A DNA stretch of 64,000 nt from Escherichia coli (GTDB taxonomy: Bacteria; Pseudomonadota; Gammaproteobacteria; Enterobacterales; Enterobacteriaceae). The notes under the pieces are model-generated. The model was not told the origin of the DNA. It made no database searches and saw nothing but the letters and a program-made list of their open reading frames with translations. Where the stretch lies: NCBI RefSeq assembly GCF_024223415.1, contig NZ_CP100500.1; one strand, given 5' to 3'. How positions within the stretch are numbered: position 1 is the first letter of the stretch; each line of letters begins with the position of its first letter. The position numbers and the translations under genes are program-made. Positions 52,781 through 60,952 of this stretch are shown in pieces.

Positions 52781-53851
52781 TTATTTAATCCGGGCCATCG
52801 CGTTTCTCAGTGCCAAATCTGCCTCTTCCGTTATATCCAGGCTTTTCTGCAATACCGCCTCTGACCGGGTCAGTGCCTGACGTGCTGCCAAGGGGTTCCG
52901 GATATGCTCCATCGTCAGCATCGTGTCTTCATAGCCCTGCTGACGCCAGATGTCGGTATGTGCCGATGTAAAACTGAGCAGACCGCCACTTTTGCCTTCT
53001 TCCCCTGTGTGTTTCAGCCTTTTCCGGGGACGGATTTCAAGGATTGTGGTGTCCGGAAAAGCCCGGCGATCCCATAAAGAACCGTCACTCAGATGCGTCA
53101 CAATCACCATATTGCATCCGGCATCGACCAGAGGCGTTACAGGGGTATTTCCCTGCATATTTCGCCATCCTCCCATCCCACCATCACCGAACATTGTCCC
53201 CTGAACCTCACGGGGATGGAACAACAGGGGCAGTGCGGCTGACGCAAGCAGAGCCTCTTTCTGCTGTCCGCGGGGCAGACTCTGGATATGCTGAAAAACG
53301 GCGTTTTTCGTGGTTCCGGCACCCAGTTCAGCACGAATGCAGTCAATAATATCCTGCATGCCCCCTTCTGTGGGGTACAGCGACACATACAGCGGTAGCC
53401 CGTCTGCCAGAGCATCAGTATCAAGATAATGATCCATCAGCGCTGTCAGAGGCTCATCTGACAACAGCGGCTGAGCCATCGGATTGTCGAAGCCGTTGAT
53501 TATCGATATATGGCGAAGAAGTATCGTAAGCAGTGCTCCTGCACGTCCGGGGATCTGGCAGAGGTTCATTGCCTGGAACAATTTTTTCAGCAATGAAAAG
53601 TAAACCGATCGGTTTACCGACAGCACCTGATTATTCCCCAGATGATCCCAGAGCGCCTCCAGGCGTACGGCAGCTTCTGACAGATCGGGAGAGGCCGCGA
53701 TAATGGCACCATTGAATGCGCCAATGCTGGCCCCTGAAACCATGCTGATCTGTGTACCACACTCTGCCAGTGCCTTAACCACTCCCGCCTGATAAGCGCC
53801 CACCGCCCCGCCACCGGACAGCACCAGCCCCGTTTTCATTTCTGTACTCAT
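52781..53851 (-). CDS. patatin-like phospholipase
   Basis: 356-aa ORF with glycine-rich oxyanion loop (SGGGAVGAYQAG), GxSxG nucleophile motif (GASIG) and catalytic DGG (FGDGGMGG); no signal peptide; start overlaps the upstream gene's stop. Confidence 0.8.
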   Translation of the reverse strand: MSTEMKTGLVLSGGGAVGAYQAGVVKALAECGTQISMVSGASIGAFNGAIIAASPDLSEAAVRLEALWDHLGNNQVLSVNRSVYFSLLKKLFQAMNLCQIPGRAGALLTILLRHISIINGFDNPMAQPLLSDEPLTALMDHYLDTDALADGLPLYVSLYPTEGGMQDIIDCIRAELGAGTTKNAVFQHIQSLPRGQQKEALLASAALPLLFHPREVQGTMFGDGGMGGWRNMQGNTPVTPLVDAGCNMVIVTHLSDGSLWDRRAFPDTTILEIRPRKRLKHTGEEGKSGGLLSFTSAHTDIWRQQGYEDTMLTMEHIRNPLAARQALTRSEAVLQKSLDITEEADLALRNAMARIK

Positions 53852-54753
53852 GCAGCCCCCTTCTGAAATATTTCATCGACCATACTTTCAGAGAGGCGTT
53901 CTGCAGAGCAGAGGCGAGGCATGCGAACCGGTAAGTGTTCTGCAGCCTGCGTGGTTGACCAGATCACCGGATGCTGCTCTTCACTGCACCAGTCTCCCAG
54001 CCAGTTAATCGCGTCATGCCACTCGTTATCTGCCTGCTCCCGGCCCTGACCACCAAGCCAGTCCAGAGTGTTCAGACGCACGGTTGCACTACCGCCACTC
54101 TCCTGTGCCATCTGCGTTAATGCTTTATGTCTGAGAATATCCAGTAGCTGGTTAACCTGGCCTGTTTCGCTCTGACGTATCACATCACCAAACGCGCCCC
54201 AGCGAAGCTCTTCAAGTGCCACATAACAACGTCCGGCAGGGGAAAATGACGCATATCGCCCGGCGCTCCACCATGAGAATATCTGCTCAAGATGTAACTG
54301 CGCCCGCTGAACCTGGTCAACACGGTGGAGTTTTTCTTCAAGATGATTCAGTTTATGGTGAACCTGATCGGCCAGGGTGAGTAACTGCTCCCGCGTATCT
54401 GCGGAATAATGCGCCAGCCTGGCTGTATCACTGACCAGTGAACTGACCCTGTCGTTTACCCGGGTAATCGCGTAGTTTGTGGTGGCAAGTGACGTTGTCA
54501 TCTCCGTCAGCCAGCGCAGGGACGCCTCAACGCCCTGTGCAAGCGACGCATTGATGGCATTCTGCCGTGCAGCGCCTTCGCCGGTCAGCCCCTCTTTTAA
54601 ACGCCGGAAGAACGTGCGCTCTCCGGCCGTGCGGATATGCTCCTGTGCAACATCGATTCCGTTTGCGAAATCAACCACAAATTTTTCAGGAAGACAGGTG
54701 AGTACCTGACATACCCGGTTATCAGCAATTTGTTGAATAAATGGTGAAGTCAC
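53848..54753 (-). CDS. hypothetical protein (partner of the dynamin-like GTPase)
   Basis: 301-aa ORF, predicted alpha-helical, GTG start overlapping the stop of the upstream gene (GTGA) with a GGAGA RBS about 10 nt upstream. Confidence 0.55.
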   Translation of the reverse strand: MTSPFIQQIADNRVCQVLTCLPEKFVVDFANGIDVAQEHIRTAGERTFFRRLKEGLTGEGAARQNAINASLAQGVEASLRWLTEMTTSLATTNYAITRVNDRVSSLVSDTARLAHYSADTREQLLTLADQVHHKLNHLEEKLHRVDQVQRAQLHLEQIFSWWSAGRYASFSPAGRCYVALEELRWGAFGDVIRQSETGQVNQLLDILRHKALTQMAQESGGSATVRLNTLDWLGGQGREQADNEWHDAINWLGDWCSEEQHPVIWSTTQAAEHLPVRMPRLCSAERLSESMVDEIFQKGAA

Positions 54754-57146
54754 AGCATTGTCTCCAGCTCTTCCCTCAGCGCCTTACTGTCAGTAATGAG
54801 CTCAGGAACCCTTTCATTTAATGCCTGAAGTCGCCCGGTAAGTCGTTCCTGCGCCTGCTGATCGCGTTTATGATCTTCAGAGCTCTGAATCAGCGTGTTA
54901 CGCAGTTGTTCAACTTTCTCCCTGAATGCGCAGAAAAAGGCATCGATTTCCTGGCGGACGGGCTGGTTAATATCCTGCTCAATGGATGCCTGCAGCTCCC
55001 CGAAATATGCCCGGGTCAGTGACATAACTTCCTCTCTGACCTTGTTGATATTGATCACGCTGCGACTCACATCCTCGTCATAGTTTTCCCAGCCCAGGTC
55101 ACTGGTGCCAAACCATCGACAAACGGTTCCCCATACGCCACTCTGCCGACGGCGACGGGTGACGGTCTCCGTTCTTTCCTCCATAAGCGCACTCAGATTT
55201 ATTTTTACCGCGAGCCGGGTCTGTAACTGGCTGACTGCCGGAAAACTGATTTTTACGGTAAAGCCCTCATCCTCCAGGCGGGCATTGATGCGACCGGCAA
55301 TGTTTTCTGTGGCGTACAGGGCCGTGCCACGAAAACCTGTTTCAATCCCGCTGACGATTTTCTCCAGCTCAGGCCGGAACTGTGCTTCAGCCTCACGGTG
55401 CAGGCTGGTCACGGTCGATTCGATTTGCGTCATCAGTTCAAGGGCTTCCCTGCGATCACTGAATTTTATTTCGGGGCTGTCCGGGGCAAAATCTCGTTTC
55501 CTGTAATCCTCCCGGCCCTGGTTGTTGATACCGGACCATTGAGAAATTTTCCCCCATAATCCGGACTGAGACCTTCGTTGTTCTGCGTCTTCTTCCTCCA
55601 GCATTTGCTGTTCTTTGCGTTTACCGCTTCTGAAATAGTCATTCAGCTCCTCTTCCAGTGAGGTGCAGACCCCCGTCAGTAATTCCCGGGTTTTAGTATC
55701 GATCTCCTCCATGGCCATTCTGACATCAGTGGTCATCTGCTCCTGACAGTCCGCGATTTCCCGGATATCCGCAAGCAGGCTGGTGATATGCGACTGCAGT
55801 GACTGAATGCTTTGCTGTAGCCCCTGATGGCGTAACAACAGGTATTCACTGATATTTTCTGCATTCTGCATCAGTTTTGCGGCGGCAGAGTCAACCGCCA
55901 GTGCCGCAGCTCTGGAATGTGAGCTCTGTATGACTTCCGTTATCAGTTGATCGATAAGTGAGCCTTCCCACAGGTCTGTCGCCCCTTCAGTTGCCAGTTC
56001 ACTGTCTTTACAGACGTATTCTTTTTTCATGCAACCGAAGGCACCTCTGATAAAATCATCGACCCAGGCTTCATCAACAGGAAGGGTTCCGTTTTTCCGT
56101 AACTCATGAAGCGCACGGTTAGCCAGGTATGCCTGGCGTGAGGATCCGGGATAAACGCGGGAGGCGGGCAGCACATCGCTGTTCAGCATTGCCGGAACTT
56201 TCTGGCGTACGGCATCTGCCCCATCGCCATTGCGGTCTTTCTCATCAAATTTATTGACCAGTACAAACAGGCGGCCGGCTGATACGTCAGCAATGGCATT
56301 AAGCTCTTTACGGACGTCTTCATCCGCTTTTGAGTTCATCTGGGTGTAATCCATCACAGCCAGAACCGCAGAGGCTTTCTGCAGTTGATCCCGCATCATC
56401 ACTTCCATCTGCGGTTGTCCGGCCTCATTAGGGCCGGGGGTATCCAGCAGTGTGAGTGTTCCCTGGCATGCATCCATCCCCACCAGATGGCTGAATTCCA
56501 CGTCGATCACCGGCAGTTTCTGCACTTCTGCGTATTCATCAAAAGGAAATTCAGTCCCCATTGCCGCAGCAAGACGAACCAGATCGTTTAACGATGCCAG
56601 TCCGGTAAAGATTTCCTCCTCCCCGTGGTATTCATTTTTGAGCCAGCCATCATCCGTCAGAATATCCAGCAGTTCGCGGGTATCCCCGGTTTGCTGCAGG
56701 GTCTGTGCGACCTGCTGTCCTGCCGGGGTGGCGAGTTTTTCCTGCAGTGTGATTAATAAATTGCGGACAGGCTGAATATGTTCCAGATGGAGAACCGGCT
56801 CAGTTTTTCCGGGAACGTGGCGGATGAGCGTCGGTACAGAGGTCATGGGGCGGTTACGGTTAGGCAGAATTTCCTGCCCCACAATGGCGTTGATGGTGGT
56901 TGATTTGCCTGCTTTCATCGTGCCGACAACAGCCAGCACCATCTCCCTGCGGGCGGTTTTGATTTGTTCGCCCTCCAGCTCCTCAATTCTTTTCAGTGCT
57001 TTCTGTTTATCAAAAAGCAGTCTGTTTTCGTTCTTACTGTCAGATAACACATCTGGCTCCTCAACCATTTGCCGGAGCAGATTAATGTTCAGTTGCAAAA
57101 GTCGGTCGGCTTCATCACAAAGCAGGGCGATGTTCTTTTCGTGCAT
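54750..57146 (-). CDS. dynamin-like large GTPase
   Basis: 798-aa ORF with G1 P-loop (GTMKAGKST), switch-I Thr, G3 (LLDTPG) and G4 (LVNKFD) in the N-terminal third, then long helical/coiled-coil regions. Confidence 0.8.
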   Translation of the reverse strand: MHEKNIALLCDEADRLLQLNINLLRQMVEEPDVLSDSKNENRLLFDKQKALKRIEELEGEQIKTARREMVLAVVGTMKAGKSTTINAIVGQEILPNRNRPMTSVPTLIRHVPGKTEPVLHLEHIQPVRNLLITLQEKLATPAGQQVAQTLQQTGDTRELLDILTDDGWLKNEYHGEEEIFTGLASLNDLVRLAAAMGTEFPFDEYAEVQKLPVIDVEFSHLVGMDACQGTLTLLDTPGPNEAGQPQMEVMMRDQLQKASAVLAVMDYTQMNSKADEDVRKELNAIADVSAGRLFVLVNKFDEKDRNGDGADAVRQKVPAMLNSDVLPASRVYPGSSRQAYLANRALHELRKNGTLPVDEAWVDDFIRGAFGCMKKEYVCKDSELATEGATDLWEGSLIDQLITEVIQSSHSRAAALAVDSAAAKLMQNAENISEYLLLRHQGLQQSIQSLQSHITSLLADIREIADCQEQMTTDVRMAMEEIDTKTRELLTGVCTSLEEELNDYFRSGKRKEQQMLEEEDAEQRRSQSGLWGKISQWSGINNQGREDYRKRDFAPDSPEIKFSDRREALELMTQIESTVTSLHREAEAQFRPELEKIVSGIETGFRGTALYATENIAGRINARLEDEGFTVKISFPAVSQLQTRLAVKINLSALMEERTETVTRRRRQSGVWGTVCRWFGTSDLGWENYDEDVSRSVININKVREEVMSLTRAYFGELQASIEQDINQPVRQEIDAFFCAFREKVEQLRNTLIQSSEDHKRDQQAQERLTGRLQALNERVPELITDSKALREELETML

Positions 57147-57363: not shown

Positions 57364-58280
57364 TCAGAAGAAAATCCAGTTCCATACCGCGCGGGCAACA
57401 GAGACCACCGAGTCACGGACGGCGCGCAGAACCGTGCGTGCAACAGAGGCAATGCAGACGCTCTCCGCCGTGTCAAATATCCGGTCCACCGCACCGGTAA
57501 ACTGTTCACGGGCCTGAGACCGGACAGACTCCGTGCGCAGCTCGTCCTGCAGGCGGGTCATCAGGGGACTGGCGGCATGGTCGGGAAGTGCTGTCATGAG
57601 CGCACTGACCAGCGTATCCAGTTCCCAGCCGGTGCGGGCCGATACGGCAACAACCCGATGTACGGGCCGGAACAGACGGAATACCGCCTCCGTTTTTTCG
57701 CGAATGTTCTGTGCCTGTGCGGGAGAAGGCTGAATACCGGCCATATCCCATTCATGGCAGGGCTCCGTTTTATCGGCCTGCATCACCACAAACAGTACCC
57801 GCTGATGTCCCCGGTGCAGGATGTGTCGCCAGAAATACTCATCCACAGACAGGGCACGGTCATCGGCTTTAATCAGCCACAGTACCAGGTCCAGTTCGAG
57901 CAGAATGTCACGGTACAGGGCTTCATACTCTGCATCCCTGTCCCGGCTCTCGCCCACCCCACCCCGGGCAGGTCAGTGATAACCATGCTGTGACCATGGC
58001 CATTCAGACGGAAGCGCTGCACTTCCCGGGGGCCGGCGTGAACATCACTGACCGGGGTGACCTCCCCCTGAAACAGCGCATTACAGAGTGAGGATTTACC
58101 GGCCCCGCTTTTACCCATAATGCCAGGCACGGGTTCGTGACTGGTGAGTTTGCGCAGATGTTCCAGGATGTGACGGGAAAGTGAGTAAGGCAGGGAGGAG
58201 AGCGGTTTTTCAATTGCCTCAATGGCATCAGACGGATTCATACATGTATTCCCGGTGAAAAAAGACAAAACCCCGCGCAC
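57364..58280 (-). pseudogene. YeeP/YfjP/YkfA-family small GTPase, frameshifted
   Basis: N-terminal part with P-loop (GKSGAGKSS) and DLPGVG in ORF 57873..58280; C-terminal part in overlapping ORF 57364..57957 in another frame; break coincides with a tandem ACCCC-ACCCC repeat. Confidence 0.7.
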
Positions 58281-58324
58281 CGGAAAGGTGGCGGGGGATT
58301 CACGGAAATAATATCTGTCTGAAA

Positions 58325-59488
58325 TTATCTGGAATCGATTTGGCTGTTCTGCCTGGTTGCCACCAAATCATGGTACGCCTGCTCAATCATTTCATTCAGC
58401 AGTTTTTTTGGGAGGACACCACGACTTCGGGCAATACTTTCAAGCTGTTTGTGGATTTTTCCGGACAGTTTCAGAGGGACGGAACCATCAGCACGTTCAT
58501 CACGCCTTTTTTGTTGCTCCCGGGCACTTTTCAGCTCATCAAGAAGAATCGCTTTATGCTGAATCCTGGGGGCCTGGAAGGAGACCTGCGTAAACTTCGC
58601 TCTGTTCCGTCTGGGATTACTTTCCAGTAAAAACTGTACCTGTTGCTCATTCCAGCCCTCCCAGTTATCAAACGTGGCGCAGGCAAACCAGTATTTCTGC
58701 TCCGGGGTAAGGGGATTCAGCGGGGTTCCCACACACCGGACCTGCATGGCGTTCCATAACCAGTCACACTGTTCACTGTCCCTGCTGTCCACCCACGAAA
58801 AGGGGGAGGGGTAATCATTGTTTATGCTGGCCCATTCAGAGAATACTGAGTTGATAATCGTCCTCGTAGCCTCTGGTCCGGATTTCAGCAGGTAACTGGA
58901 GCAGAACCATATAATTTCACGGTAGATTTTATCCGGATGCACGGTGCGCATCGGCTTTTCTCTGGGACCGGCAATCTTCGGTTGCGATGGAAACCCCGTG
59001 GCAAACCGCAGATGTTCCGGGGGCATTCCTGAACGTTTTTCAGGAATGGGTGTGAGTCCTGCGTTTCTGGTCTTTTCCGCTTGTCCGGTATTGCCTCCGG
59101 CCGGAGTGTTGTCGGGAGTATCTTCCGGAGGCGAGGTGTTTTCATTAGTTGGGGGAACAACAGCAGAACTGTCCATCTCCGGAATGGGTTGAGGGGCATA
59201 ATCACTGTGGTAGCCAGGGGAAAGCGTTAAGTCCCGAAGGGTGACATCAGGTTCCGGGCAGTGAGTGCCACCGGGAGTGAACGGGAGTTGTTGCTTTTGG
59301 GAGAAAAATGTATTGTGAATGCGGGTATACAGCTGGAACAGAAAAAAATAAGATGCCCGTGGTTCTTTTTTTAACCACTGTGTATATTCCTCTATGGCAC
59401 CGAGCTGTTGTTTGTGCCGTTTTACAGCATCGATATACGGACAGCTGGTGCAGATATCATCCAGTTCCTTTCCCACAATACACCTCAC
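58325..59488 (-). CDS. hypothetical island protein with Pro-rich linker
   Basis: 387-aa ORF: Cys-containing N-terminal region, a low-complexity Pro/Thr-rich segment, then a conserved-looking C-terminal domain; function and true start unknown. Confidence 0.45.
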   Translation of the reverse strand: MRCIVGKELDDICTSCPYIDAVKRHKQQLGAIEEYTQWLKKEPRASYFFLFQLYTRIHNTFFSQKQQLPFTPGGTHCPEPDVTLRDLTLSPGYHSDYAPQPIPEMDSSAVVPPTNENTSPPEDTPDNTPAGGNTGQAEKTRNAGLTPIPEKRSGMPPEHLRFATGFPSQPKIAGPREKPMRTVHPDKIYREIIWFCSSYLLKSGPEATRTIINSVFSEWASINNDYPSPFSWVDSRDSEQCDWLWNAMQVRCVGTPLNPLTPEQKYWFACATFDNWEGWNEQQVQFLLESNPRRNRAKFTQVSFQAPRIQHKAILLDELKSAREQQKRRDERADGSVPLKLSGKIHKQLESIARSRGVLPKKLLNEMIEQAYHDLVATRQNSQIDSR

Positions 59489-60952
59489 CTGCTTTTCTCA
59501 CATTTGCAGATTTTAAAAAAGCAAACAAAAACCTCCGTACATGATGTACAGAACAATCTACCAGGTAGTGGCGTCAGAAAACCCCCGGGCCGCCTGCACT
59601 TTCCAGAATGCGCCGGTTATGAAAAACCGGAAATTCAGTCTCTGTTGTAAGATGTACCCTCTGATACTACGTTTTCTCTGTGTATTTAACTCACTGTATT
59701 TATTGTCTTTTTAAGCTTGACTGATATTCTCCGGTCATAGTGTGCCGGATATACATCCCGTAAACTTCTCATTTTTATATAAAAATACCTGCACTCTCTT
59801 CAGCGCATCTGTCTCCTTTAAGTAAAAAATGTTTTCACGTATTGCTGTAAATTCATTTTAAATCAGTATATTACCTTGATATTGCTGTCTCCTGGTTTGA
59901 TGCGTAATCGTTCTGCCTTTCTGGATGATTCTGGTGCTTCCGGGTGCATTCTCCTCTGCACATGCAACAGTTCGTCATCGCCACGCTCCCAAAAAGCATA
60001 TAAAAACGAATCGAATTTGATATTTTTTTCAATCGTTTTTCATAGGAATTTCGTAGGGTATTCTCCGCTATAACCTCCATATTTGCTGCCTTTTTCTCCA
60101 TAAATCGTATGCAATATAGCCTGTCTGTCAAGACCTCTTCTCTGCTGTTGAGGAGACGATCTCATTTTTGGTCTTTTCCGGGAGAGAGGCTGTCAGATGA
60201 GCGAGCCGGATATACTGTCAGAGGTACACCCCGTAGCAGACCTGTGCTCCCATTTCCGCGATCCGGAACCAACAACACCCTACGGTTAATACCATTTGAA
60301 GCGTCAGGTACTGCAGGAAGTTCCCCCCTGCGCGGACATCGGTTCCTGCCGACATCTCACAATACGGCCAGACTGTCATGCAGTAACACCCGCATGCGGT
60401 CTGCGGTTTTAAGCGCACTCTCCCGTTTTCAGTGCACCGATAATGCGTCATAGTAAGTCTGGGGGAAGTTACGGAATGCCTGTTAAGTGGTGCCGTGGGT
60501 GGAGACAGCTTACTTTTCTACAGCAACTGCAGTCATTCAGGATGATCAGGAGATATTCTGTCAATGTCACGATCCTGCCATTTTCGTACCCGCTAAGATA
60601 CTTCCGTTACTGATGCTGTCCGCTTTTCACCATTTCATCCTCACTGACAGGCGTTGCGTTTTGGGTCATCACCACAGCTTTACGTTTCTCTTTTAACCGG
60701 TAACGCTCTCCTTTGATATTCAGCGTGGTTGAGTGATGCAGCAGTCAATCCAGGAGCGCTGTTGTCCGGCAACCACCATATCAACTTCTTCCCGGGTGTG
60801 GCGGAGAGGTGGTATCCTGGCTGAGTTTCGAAGCGAACCGTTCTTTTTGACGGGCGCATTTTACGTCCGGGCTGAATGTAGTAACGCGGCATGGAACGTC
60901 GGCCCGTATACCATTGCCTTAATCTCCGCAAAGATAACCTCGTCATTCCGGA

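Follow-up and report, generated by a model that had tools for sequence, protein, structure and literature searches.

In plasmid R1, the ribbon-helix-helix (RHH) protein ParR binds parC with one dimer per 11-bp iteron, and parC consists of two sets of five such iterons that flank a promoter and act both as operator and as centromere (PMC2241845). ParG, ParR and omega coat arrays of short boxes separated by AT-rich spacers, as at parH (PMC3130281). Here we compare with these systems a gene from a chromosomal island of Escherichia coli. The DNA analysed (64,000 nucleotides of contig NZ_CP100500.1, assembly GCF_024223415.1; hereafter the window) follows the E. coli chromosome from wca, his and yeeZ to sbcB-dacD-sbmC-yeeA and then enters an island at the CP4-44 position. 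On the minus strand of this island, at 58325..59476, lies a gene for a 'hypothetical protein' of 383 residues, which we call the island protein. We conclude that its C-terminus is probably an RHH DNA-binding domain, on evidence that is convergent although each piece of it is weak. The gene is preceded by a tandem array of 11-bp direct repeats that is associated exclusively with it. We propose that cooperative binding of the protein to this array controls the promoter of its gene or the switch region of the island, a proposal to which we give about an even chance.

The geometry of the repeats is that of R1 parC. In the window the units CTACGAAATTC, CTATGAAAAAC, GATTGAAAAAA, ATATCAAATTC and GATTCGTTTTT occupy 60002..60057 on the minus strand, where they form a predicted operator or iteron array; read from 60057 to 60002, the array lies at -580 from the start codon. 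All lineages with sequence 5' of the gene share an array with an 11-bp phase and a core of CTACG or TTACTA, which precedes the gene and lies on its coding strand. They comprise three paralogous islands of E. coli, five metagenome lineages, and Citrobacter, Cronobacter, Serratia and Hafnia. The units are CTACGAATTTT, CTACGTATTTA, AATCGAAATTA and CTATGAATTTT in Citrobacter and Cronobacter (at -155), CTACGTTTTTA and CTACGTTTTTG in locus L006 (at -131), and ACTACGAAATT and ACTACGTAAAA in locus L020 (at -133). Locus L021 has six or seven phased units, starting from -143, and Serratia and Hafnia have CTACA or CTACG units at -137. In the clade of L008 and L019 the units are ATTACTA, spaced by 11 or 22 bp in L008 and by 11 bp in L019 (at -121 and -103, respectively). 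Spacers and flanking DNA are A/T-rich.

The intergenic regions are otherwise unalignable across lineages and share no other nucleotide similarity. Patterns of two units occurred nowhere else on either strand of 446 kb of fetched loci, and in the 48-kb locus L002, which covers the island and its chromosomal flanks, a single unit was found only at two adjacent positions. No two-unit pattern was found in those islands of K-12 in which AlpA, G2P-like and GTPase genes are present without the gene for the island protein. One relaxed pattern matched 9 of 9 regions, from about seven independent lineages, compared to 2-13% of dinucleotide shuffles per region. Both the array and its exclusive association with the gene are newly described here. 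In the clade of relatives P0060 and P0063 the box shifts to TTACTA and a Gly of the ribbon replaces the Pro, Ala or Glu of other members; K340 is constant across both box types, as is the TAC core. This change of box and ribbon may be a covariation, albeit a weak one.

The assignment of the C-terminus as an RHH draws on structure prediction and on profile comparisons. We built an AlphaFold2 model on a 32-sequence alignment (A2), which had a mean predicted local distance difference test score (pLDDT) of 78 and a predicted template-modelling score (pTM) of 0.69; residue numbers here and below are those of a 387-residue version of the protein. The C-terminus of the monomer has a beta-strand, helix, helix topology, being extended at 334-342 with helices at 343-356 and 360-386. 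Modelling residues 304-387 twice in a single chain, on a paired alignment, gave only two strands, one at 337-341 of each copy, followed in each by two helices. As these are the only strands in the model, and there is one per copy, they are predicted to pair with each other.

Matches to PF10723 (RepB-RCR_reg), PF01402 (RHH_1), PF16777 (RHH_7) and HicB all fell on the C-terminal segment, in eight members of the family. One of these, P0083, exceeded the Pfam cut-off (PF10723, 21.7 bits against 21), and the other seven were below threshold. The similarity to PF10723 is limited to profile positions ~31-80, the generic RHH part. The protein from the window itself gave no Pfam hit at E ≤ 1, either at full length or as residues 310-387, and thus matched neither an RHH family nor PF10723. 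A profile of the C-terminus alone retrieved ORF56 of pRN1, MatP and CopG in register (E 0.09-0.5). MatP was also the top match of the model in the PDB by Foldseek (E = 6.0, probability 0.16, TM 0.13/0.28) and matched by hmmsearch over 24 residues at the RHH helix (E = 0.25), neither of which is significant.

The features shared with RHH proteins such as CopG, Arc and MetJ are the C-terminal beta-alpha-alpha unit, a predicted ribbon between copies, a basic surface, and tandem-repeat DNA beside the gene's own promoter. The architecture is different, however. Typical RHH regulators have 45-130 residues, whereas here the RHH stands at the C-terminus of a protein of ~380 residues, behind a module of ~300 residues without a known relative. 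MatP has a similar order of parts (a helical bundle, then the RHH, then a C-terminal helix), but it is a core chromosomal protein of 150 residues that binds the palindromic matS and not direct repeats.

The open reading frame (ORF) is uninterrupted. At its longest it spans 58325..59488 on the minus strand and encodes 387 residues from a GTG codon. In near-identical genomes (99.9% identity) RefSeq starts the same gene four codons later, at the GTG at 59476 (383 residues, WP_000514100.1). This codon has a Shine-Dalgarno-like sequence, GAGGTG, 4 nt to its 5' side, and the N-termini of homologues coincide with it (for example, 'MGKELDD' in P0001). On these sequence features we take the gene to be 58325-59476. 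A preliminary description of the window had treated the ORF as genuine, which its intactness, its annotation by RefSeq and its conservation bear out.

That description also gave the protein two domains joined by a low-complexity, Pro-rich segment. The segment is there (residues 67-180, 58949..59290, minus strand; 19% Pro, 11% Thr; predicted disordered), but the AlphaFold2 model shows more than two parts. The first is an N-terminal helical hairpin (residues 19-66, 59291..59434, minus strand) made of helices 19-41 and 43-66 with a pLDDT of 88-96. It carries the motif W38-L-K-x3-R44-A-x2-F-F, of which W38 and R44 are nearly invariant among the 32 homologues. In the Pro/Thr-rich insertion that follows, pLDDT fell below 50 at residues 79-141 and 172-179, around a short conserved and ordered motif, PPExLRFAxGF, at ~151-171. 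Conservation along the gene is lowest in this insertion, which has the highest rates of both non-synonymous and synonymous substitution (dN and dS; dN 0.42-0.45 between E. coli paralogues) and varies in both length and sequence. Distant relatives of ~300 residues do without it, so that it is specific to a clade and not a linker common to the family. The third part is an all-helical central domain with eight Trp residues (residues 181-305, 58574..58948, minus strand), modelled at 185-300 with a pLDDT of 87-97. W219, W232, W243 and D274 are invariant in this domain, and F230, W245 and W276 nearly so. The last part (58328..58573, minus strand; pI 10.1) comprises a basic helix, residues 308-333, with conserved HK312, A322, Q325 and R329, and the RHH unit.

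No family was recognised for the protein, in agreement with the preliminary description. The sequence matched none of the families in Pfam, NCBIfam or PADLOC and no PDB sequence, and PHROGs profiles gave nothing better than E = 0.058 and 0.11; these PADLOC and PHROGs searches thus gave no membership of an anti-phage defence or phage family. A search of PDB profiles with a profile of the whole family had no significant match, and Foldseek found no significant relative of the model in the PDB or BFVD. A profile search with the 32-sequence alignment retrieved no annotated relative, every named relative being a 'hypothetical protein', and searching the literature by accession and by gene neighbourhood found no study of the island protein. 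We conclude that everything outside the RHH is a novel module. Its Trp-rich domain, for which no structural relative was found, appears to be a new fold family.

The sequence searches point to a small uncharacterised family restricted to enterobacterial genomic islands. A HMMER scan of 1.84 billion representative proteins found 61 clusters, about 25 of them full length. Many clusters of truncated products also exist. One cluster at 90% identity, which holds the protein described here, has 4098 member sequences, among which the intact form of 383 or 384 residues predominates. In about 1,960 of 5,426 complete E. coli genomes, a 1.5-kb stretch comprising the gene and flanking DNA is present at a coverage of at least 80%. 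Copies in paralogous E. coli islands are 72-79% identical. Relatives in Citrobacter koseri, Cronobacter sakazakii, Serratia quinivorans, Hafnia paralvei and Enterobacter are 26-31% identical, and those on metagenome contigs 19-23%; an intact ORF and the invariant residues are kept down to 21% identity. With the patterns used, the family was found in 3 of 100,044 species-representative genomes. It had no tblastn match in 50,697 phage genomes, and was found in 3 of 72,556 plasmid records and at one locus among the 2.9 million viral contigs of IMG/VR. Given these counts, we rejected both a structural role in a phage satellite and a plasmid-borne function.

The gene keeps its place as well as its sequence. 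In every locus with enough sequence, down to 21% identity, it lies directly 5' of a gene for a YeeP/YkfA/YfjP-type GTPase (MMR_HSR1), and it has this position in islands of Citrobacter, Cronobacter, Serratia and Hafnia and on four metagenome contigs. The exception is the distant relative P0076, which is followed directly by DUF932. In the window the GTPase is a pseudogene, as the preliminary description had it, made of the ORFs 57873..58280 and 57364..57957 ('GTPase family protein, frameshifted' in RefSeq). Genes for DUF932, antirestriction proteins, RadC/YeeS, DUF987 and CbeA/CbtA lie beyond the GTPase. On the other flank are genes for AlpA, a conserved protein of ~200 residues, a G2P-like (YagK/YfjJ) protein and zinc-ribbon proteins. 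The placement of the gene at the head of the island gene array did not hold up, as in the window AlpA and the G2P-like gene sit farther upstream, past IS66 and IS21 debris.

The gene and alpA point away from each other, across 490-800 bp, in Citrobacter, Cronobacter, Serratia and metagenome loci. In E. coli the pair of alpA and the 200-residue gene (whose product is 60% identical to its Citrobacter counterpart) is instead co-directional with the gene, and so inverted compared to Citrobacter, Cronobacter and Serratia. It is separated from the gene by ~1.6 kb, which includes a remnant of the insertion sequence (IS) IS21 istB, and the window holds an IS66 as well. This co-directional, IS-interrupted arrangement is therefore derived, and the switch region of the E. 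coli island was rearranged. The istB remnant ('AAA family ATPase') is common to all paralogous E. coli islands (L002 30608-35218; 60607-63357 in the window, where tnpA, tnpB and tnpC of IS66 follow it). The gene's surroundings are full of remnants of IS66, IS21 and ISL3.

Neither a homologue nor a remnant of the gene was detected by tblastn in CP4-44, CP4-57 or CP4-6 of K-12, so the comparison with CP4-57 and CP4-6 that the preliminary description suggested yielded no counterpart. In these islands the slot upstream of the GTPase is filled by rnlAB/yfjM, perR or yoeA fragments. In island i2 of the uropathogenic E. coli (UPEC) clone D, an inserted TonB-dependent receptor and ABC iron-uptake cluster separates the gene, itself frameshifted, from a truncated GTPase (L013 4145-12000). 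The yoeA fragments upstream of yeeP in K-12 look like what is left of this very insertion; if they are, it would account for the absence of the gene from CP4-44. Overall, the gene is conserved at the same position in at least six enterobacterial genera. Judged by the preliminary description's own criterion of disruption in homologous loci, it is nevertheless broken in some cases, with the frameshift in clone D i2 and the many truncated clusters.

A candidate promoter of the gene, TTGACA-16-TACGAT (60104..60131, minus strand), was found by a scan for sigma70 consensus (10 of 12 matches), ~45 nt upstream of the array and within a block that is 90-98% identical among the three paralogous E. coli islands. 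In L021 a strong terminator with a 13-bp stem lies 70 nt upstream of the array, and hence the promoter in that locus must overlap or abut the array. Between array and start codon, E. coli has a long lineage-specific leader (59477..60001, minus strand), with ~450 nt more than all other genera, where the array lies 103-155 nt from the start. The leader contains two weak terminator-like hairpins, at 59790-59807 and 59533-59553. We rejected a structured RNA here, as the leader had no Rfam match and a folding z of 0.28 compared to shuffles, and rejected a single-strand (Frpo-like) promoter hairpin, as the region has no long inverted repeat.

The conserved block itself spans 59880-60200 and is noncoding; its flanks are ~70-80% identical, and an 80-nt stretch within it, 59898-59977, is identical in all three paralogues except for one substitution in L017. 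It showed no conserved ORF, Rfam match or excess of RNA structure, and an 86-residue ORF at 59871..60131 was discarded because a 2-nt indel breaks its frame in paralogue L017. The block may reflect gene conversion or a DNA-level function beyond the repeat array. We did not accept it as proof of selection, as the same mosaic of low dS is found inside the gene, so that gene conversion can explain it.

How might the island protein act on its array? We propose that the C-terminal ~55 residues would dimerise as an RHH through an antiparallel beta-ribbon, and that the RHH and the conserved basic helix before it would together bind the coding-strand repeats (core CTACG plus A/T-rich spacer). Binding would be cooperative, with one dimer per helical turn, in the manner of ParR, ParG, omega and MetJ-type proteins on tandem subsites. 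As the array adjoins the candidate promoter of the gene, and in most genera is located between the gene and the divergent alpA and rep genes, binding would autoregulate the gene and set the switch state of the island. A second, novel module, made up of the N-terminal hairpin and the Trp-rich domain, would serve in higher-order assembly or in binding a signal or partner, and the Pro/Thr insertion would be a flexible, fast-evolving spacer. The RHH domain and the lineage-conserved array both fit the regulatory or replication-type role that the preliminary description had found consistent with the position of the gene, and on the whole the first reading of the ORF as an island protein is partly supported.

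Master repressors of the SaPI Stl and lambda CI type are transcribed divergently from an excision and replication module and have helix-turn-helix (HTH) domains. The island gene has the same layout in Citrobacter, Cronobacter, Serratia, Hafnia and metagenome loci, where it is divergent from alpA and the G2P-like rep gene and its putative operator lies in the intergenic region between them. In contrast, its product has no homology to these repressors, would bind through an RHH rather than an HTH, and in E. coli is encoded in the co-directional, IS-interrupted arrangement. With ParR/parC, ParG/parH and omega the locus shares an RHH protein encoded beside tandem repeats of exactly 11 bp with AT-rich spacers, and an adjacent NTPase gene. 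The likeness to ParR, ParG and omega is one of fold only, however, and the setting is a chromosomal island rather than a plasmid, with two to seven recognisable units.

Several points weigh against the proposal that the protein binds the array. The two-copy model is of moderate confidence (pLDDT 62.6, ~70-80 in the domain; pTM 0.40) and comes from an artificial construct. We defined the repeat pattern with the data already in view. In most lineages no more than 160 nt separate array and gene, so that their joint absence from K-12 is not independent evidence, and our promoter calls are consensus matches that occur at chance frequency. One of the co-resident AlpA, 200-residue or G2P-like proteins could bind the array instead. 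The switch logic may have ceased to operate in E. coli, where 580 nt lie between array and start codon and the alpA module is inverted and cut off by IS debris. Relaxed selection on the gene in this species is suggested by a dN/dS of 0.5-0.7 among E. coli paralogues and by the many truncated or frameshifted copies.

These last observations raise the possibility that in E. coli a formerly mobile island has left behind a gene in decay, which has no present function and owes its conservation to recent ancestry and gene conversion. The dN/dS ratios, the frameshifted copy in clone D i2, the numerous clusters of truncated products, the IS66, IS21 and ISL3 remnants all around, the rearranged alpA module and the complete loss of the gene from K-12 are all in keeping with such decay. 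The mosaic of dS (0.08 in the central and C-terminal parts, compared to 0.64 in the linker) suggests recombination. On the other hand, the intact form predominates, with 4098 sequences in one cluster at 90% identity and about 1960 complete genomes that carry the stretch of gene and flanks, the ORF and its invariant residues persist to 21% identity, and dN/dS was 0.09 in the central domain for the pair of Citrobacter and Cronobacter. Moreover, decay would concern present selection in E. coli and not the activity of the protein. We consider it unlikely that the gene is such a relic.

The repeats could alternatively be iterons for replication or transfer, with the RHH protein as an accessory factor at an island origin that, like TraY, TraM, MobC or CopG/RepB, prepares DNA for the G2P-like (HUH-type) initiator. 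Wherever the sequenced locus is long enough, genes of the G2P/YagK_YfjJ family co-occur; A/T-rich DNA flanks the repeats, and relatives of the island protein match PF10723, the 'replication regulatory protein RepB', although only in its generic RHH part. We also count in favour the downstream genes for DUF932, antirestriction and RadC, which resemble genes typical of the leading regions of transferred DNA. However, we identified neither DnaA boxes nor an inverted repeat like a nick site, finding only short inverted repeats at chance level, and the array always shares the orientation of the gene and lies near its start, as expected of an operator. The family is also absent from phage genomes and almost absent from plasmids and viral contigs. 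We consider an origin factor somewhat less likely again than a relic.

The remaining explanation concerns the neighbouring GTPase, which in the window (57364..58241, minus strand) is split into two overlapping ORFs of 135 and 197 residues. As the RHH gene is intact where the GTPase is frameshifted, its maintenance here is independent of a working GTPase. The preliminary description had the two genes in one array, and a single operon was a candidate; we rejected it, because the GTPase has a conserved promoter box and a terminator-like hairpin of its own between the genes, which indicate separate units. The sigma70 box, TTCCAG-15-TATTAT (58308..58334, minus strand), overlaps by its -35 element the last codons and the stop codon of the island gene. 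The box sequence aTTCCAgATAATTTCAGACAGATATTAT, which begins at that stop codon, is conserved at the nucleotide level across six genera, and 11 loci from these six genera have the 17-mer TTTCAGACAGATATTAT within it without a mismatch. Upstream of K-12 yfjP and ykfA the box can be aligned as well, and the K-12 version, TTGAAA-15-TATCAT, is a promoter that bound RpoD holoenzyme in genomic SELEX (systematic evolution of ligands by exponential enrichment; PMC3946193). In the 5' leader of the GTPase (58258..58296, minus strand) there follows a GC-rich hairpin, at 58271-58296, with a T-run (minimum free energy -32 kcal/mol, z = -3.9). Such a hairpin and T-run lie 15-25 nt downstream of the box in every lineage, with differing stem sequences; comparable loci are L003 11140-11237, L011 15633-15713 and L012 10959-11038. 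The GTPase operon thus has its own promoter, with a promoter-proximal terminator after it. Targets of the Pseudomonas aeruginosa AlpA antiterminator also combine a promoter with a terminator (PMC7969949, PMC9371919). All the islands with this promoter and hairpin encode an AlpA-family protein, and we regard the likeness as a lead only.

Could the RHH protein coat the array as ParR coats parC, and recruit the YeeP/YkfA-type GTPase to segregate or position the excised island? Such a centromere-binding adaptor would suit the array (11-bp direct repeats at a promoter, with one RHH dimer per iteron in R1; PMC2241845). The GTPase is the immediate downstream neighbour in all lineages to 21% identity except that of P0076, its intact paralogue shows weak similarity to the dynamin family (Dynamin_N 2.4e-8, beside MMR_HSR1 1.4e-14), and the large extra N-terminal module could serve as a surface for interaction with an NTPase. 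However, no cognate ParM or ParA NTPase lies in the same operon; the neighbour is an Era/dynamin-like small GTPase (MMR_HSR1/Dynamin_N-like) with its own promoter, and a pseudogene in the window. The GTPase is also present without the island gene in CP4-57 and CP4-6 of K-12. The two genes do not make up one tightly co-evolving cassette, given the separate promoter and terminator of the GTPase and its much stronger conservation. YeeP/YkfA-type GTPases are not known to polymerise, the family of the island protein is nearly absent from plasmids (3/72,556), and in the window the GTPase is frameshifted where the island gene is intact. We consider a partition adaptor the least probable of these explanations.

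Downstream of the GTPase, the window carries a three-gene cluster (52781-57146, minus strand) that encodes a dynamin-family protein of 798 residues, an RdcB/YjcZ-family protein and a patatin-like phospholipase. In PADLOC the first had weak similarity to LeoBC (8.6e-5) and the last to a phospholipase effector (8.4e-5). The cluster could be a cargo module for defence or membrane remodelling. The island module at whose entry the gene stands carries, together with these dynamin-like and patatin genes, Ag43, antirestriction genes and CbtA/CbeA.

Returning to regulation by the RHH protein, a bolder version, which we think improbable, would make it the master switch of enterobacterial islands of the AlpA/P4-integrase type. 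It would form a ParR-like coat on the array, and the novel Trp-rich module would recruit the YeeP-type GTPase or else detect an inducer (for example a protein of phage or host, with Stl-like derepression). If GTPase recruitment were true, RHH protein and GTPase would be a new DNA-positioning or partition system for excised islands. At its more modest strength, the gain is incremental, as RHH autoregulators on tandem repeats are a familiar design. Nevertheless, an RHH domain with a conserved candidate binding site makes an anonymous 'hypothetical protein' a directly testable regulator, and offers a handle on the control of the switch region in 'cryptic P4-like' islands, of whose regulation little is known apart from AlpA.

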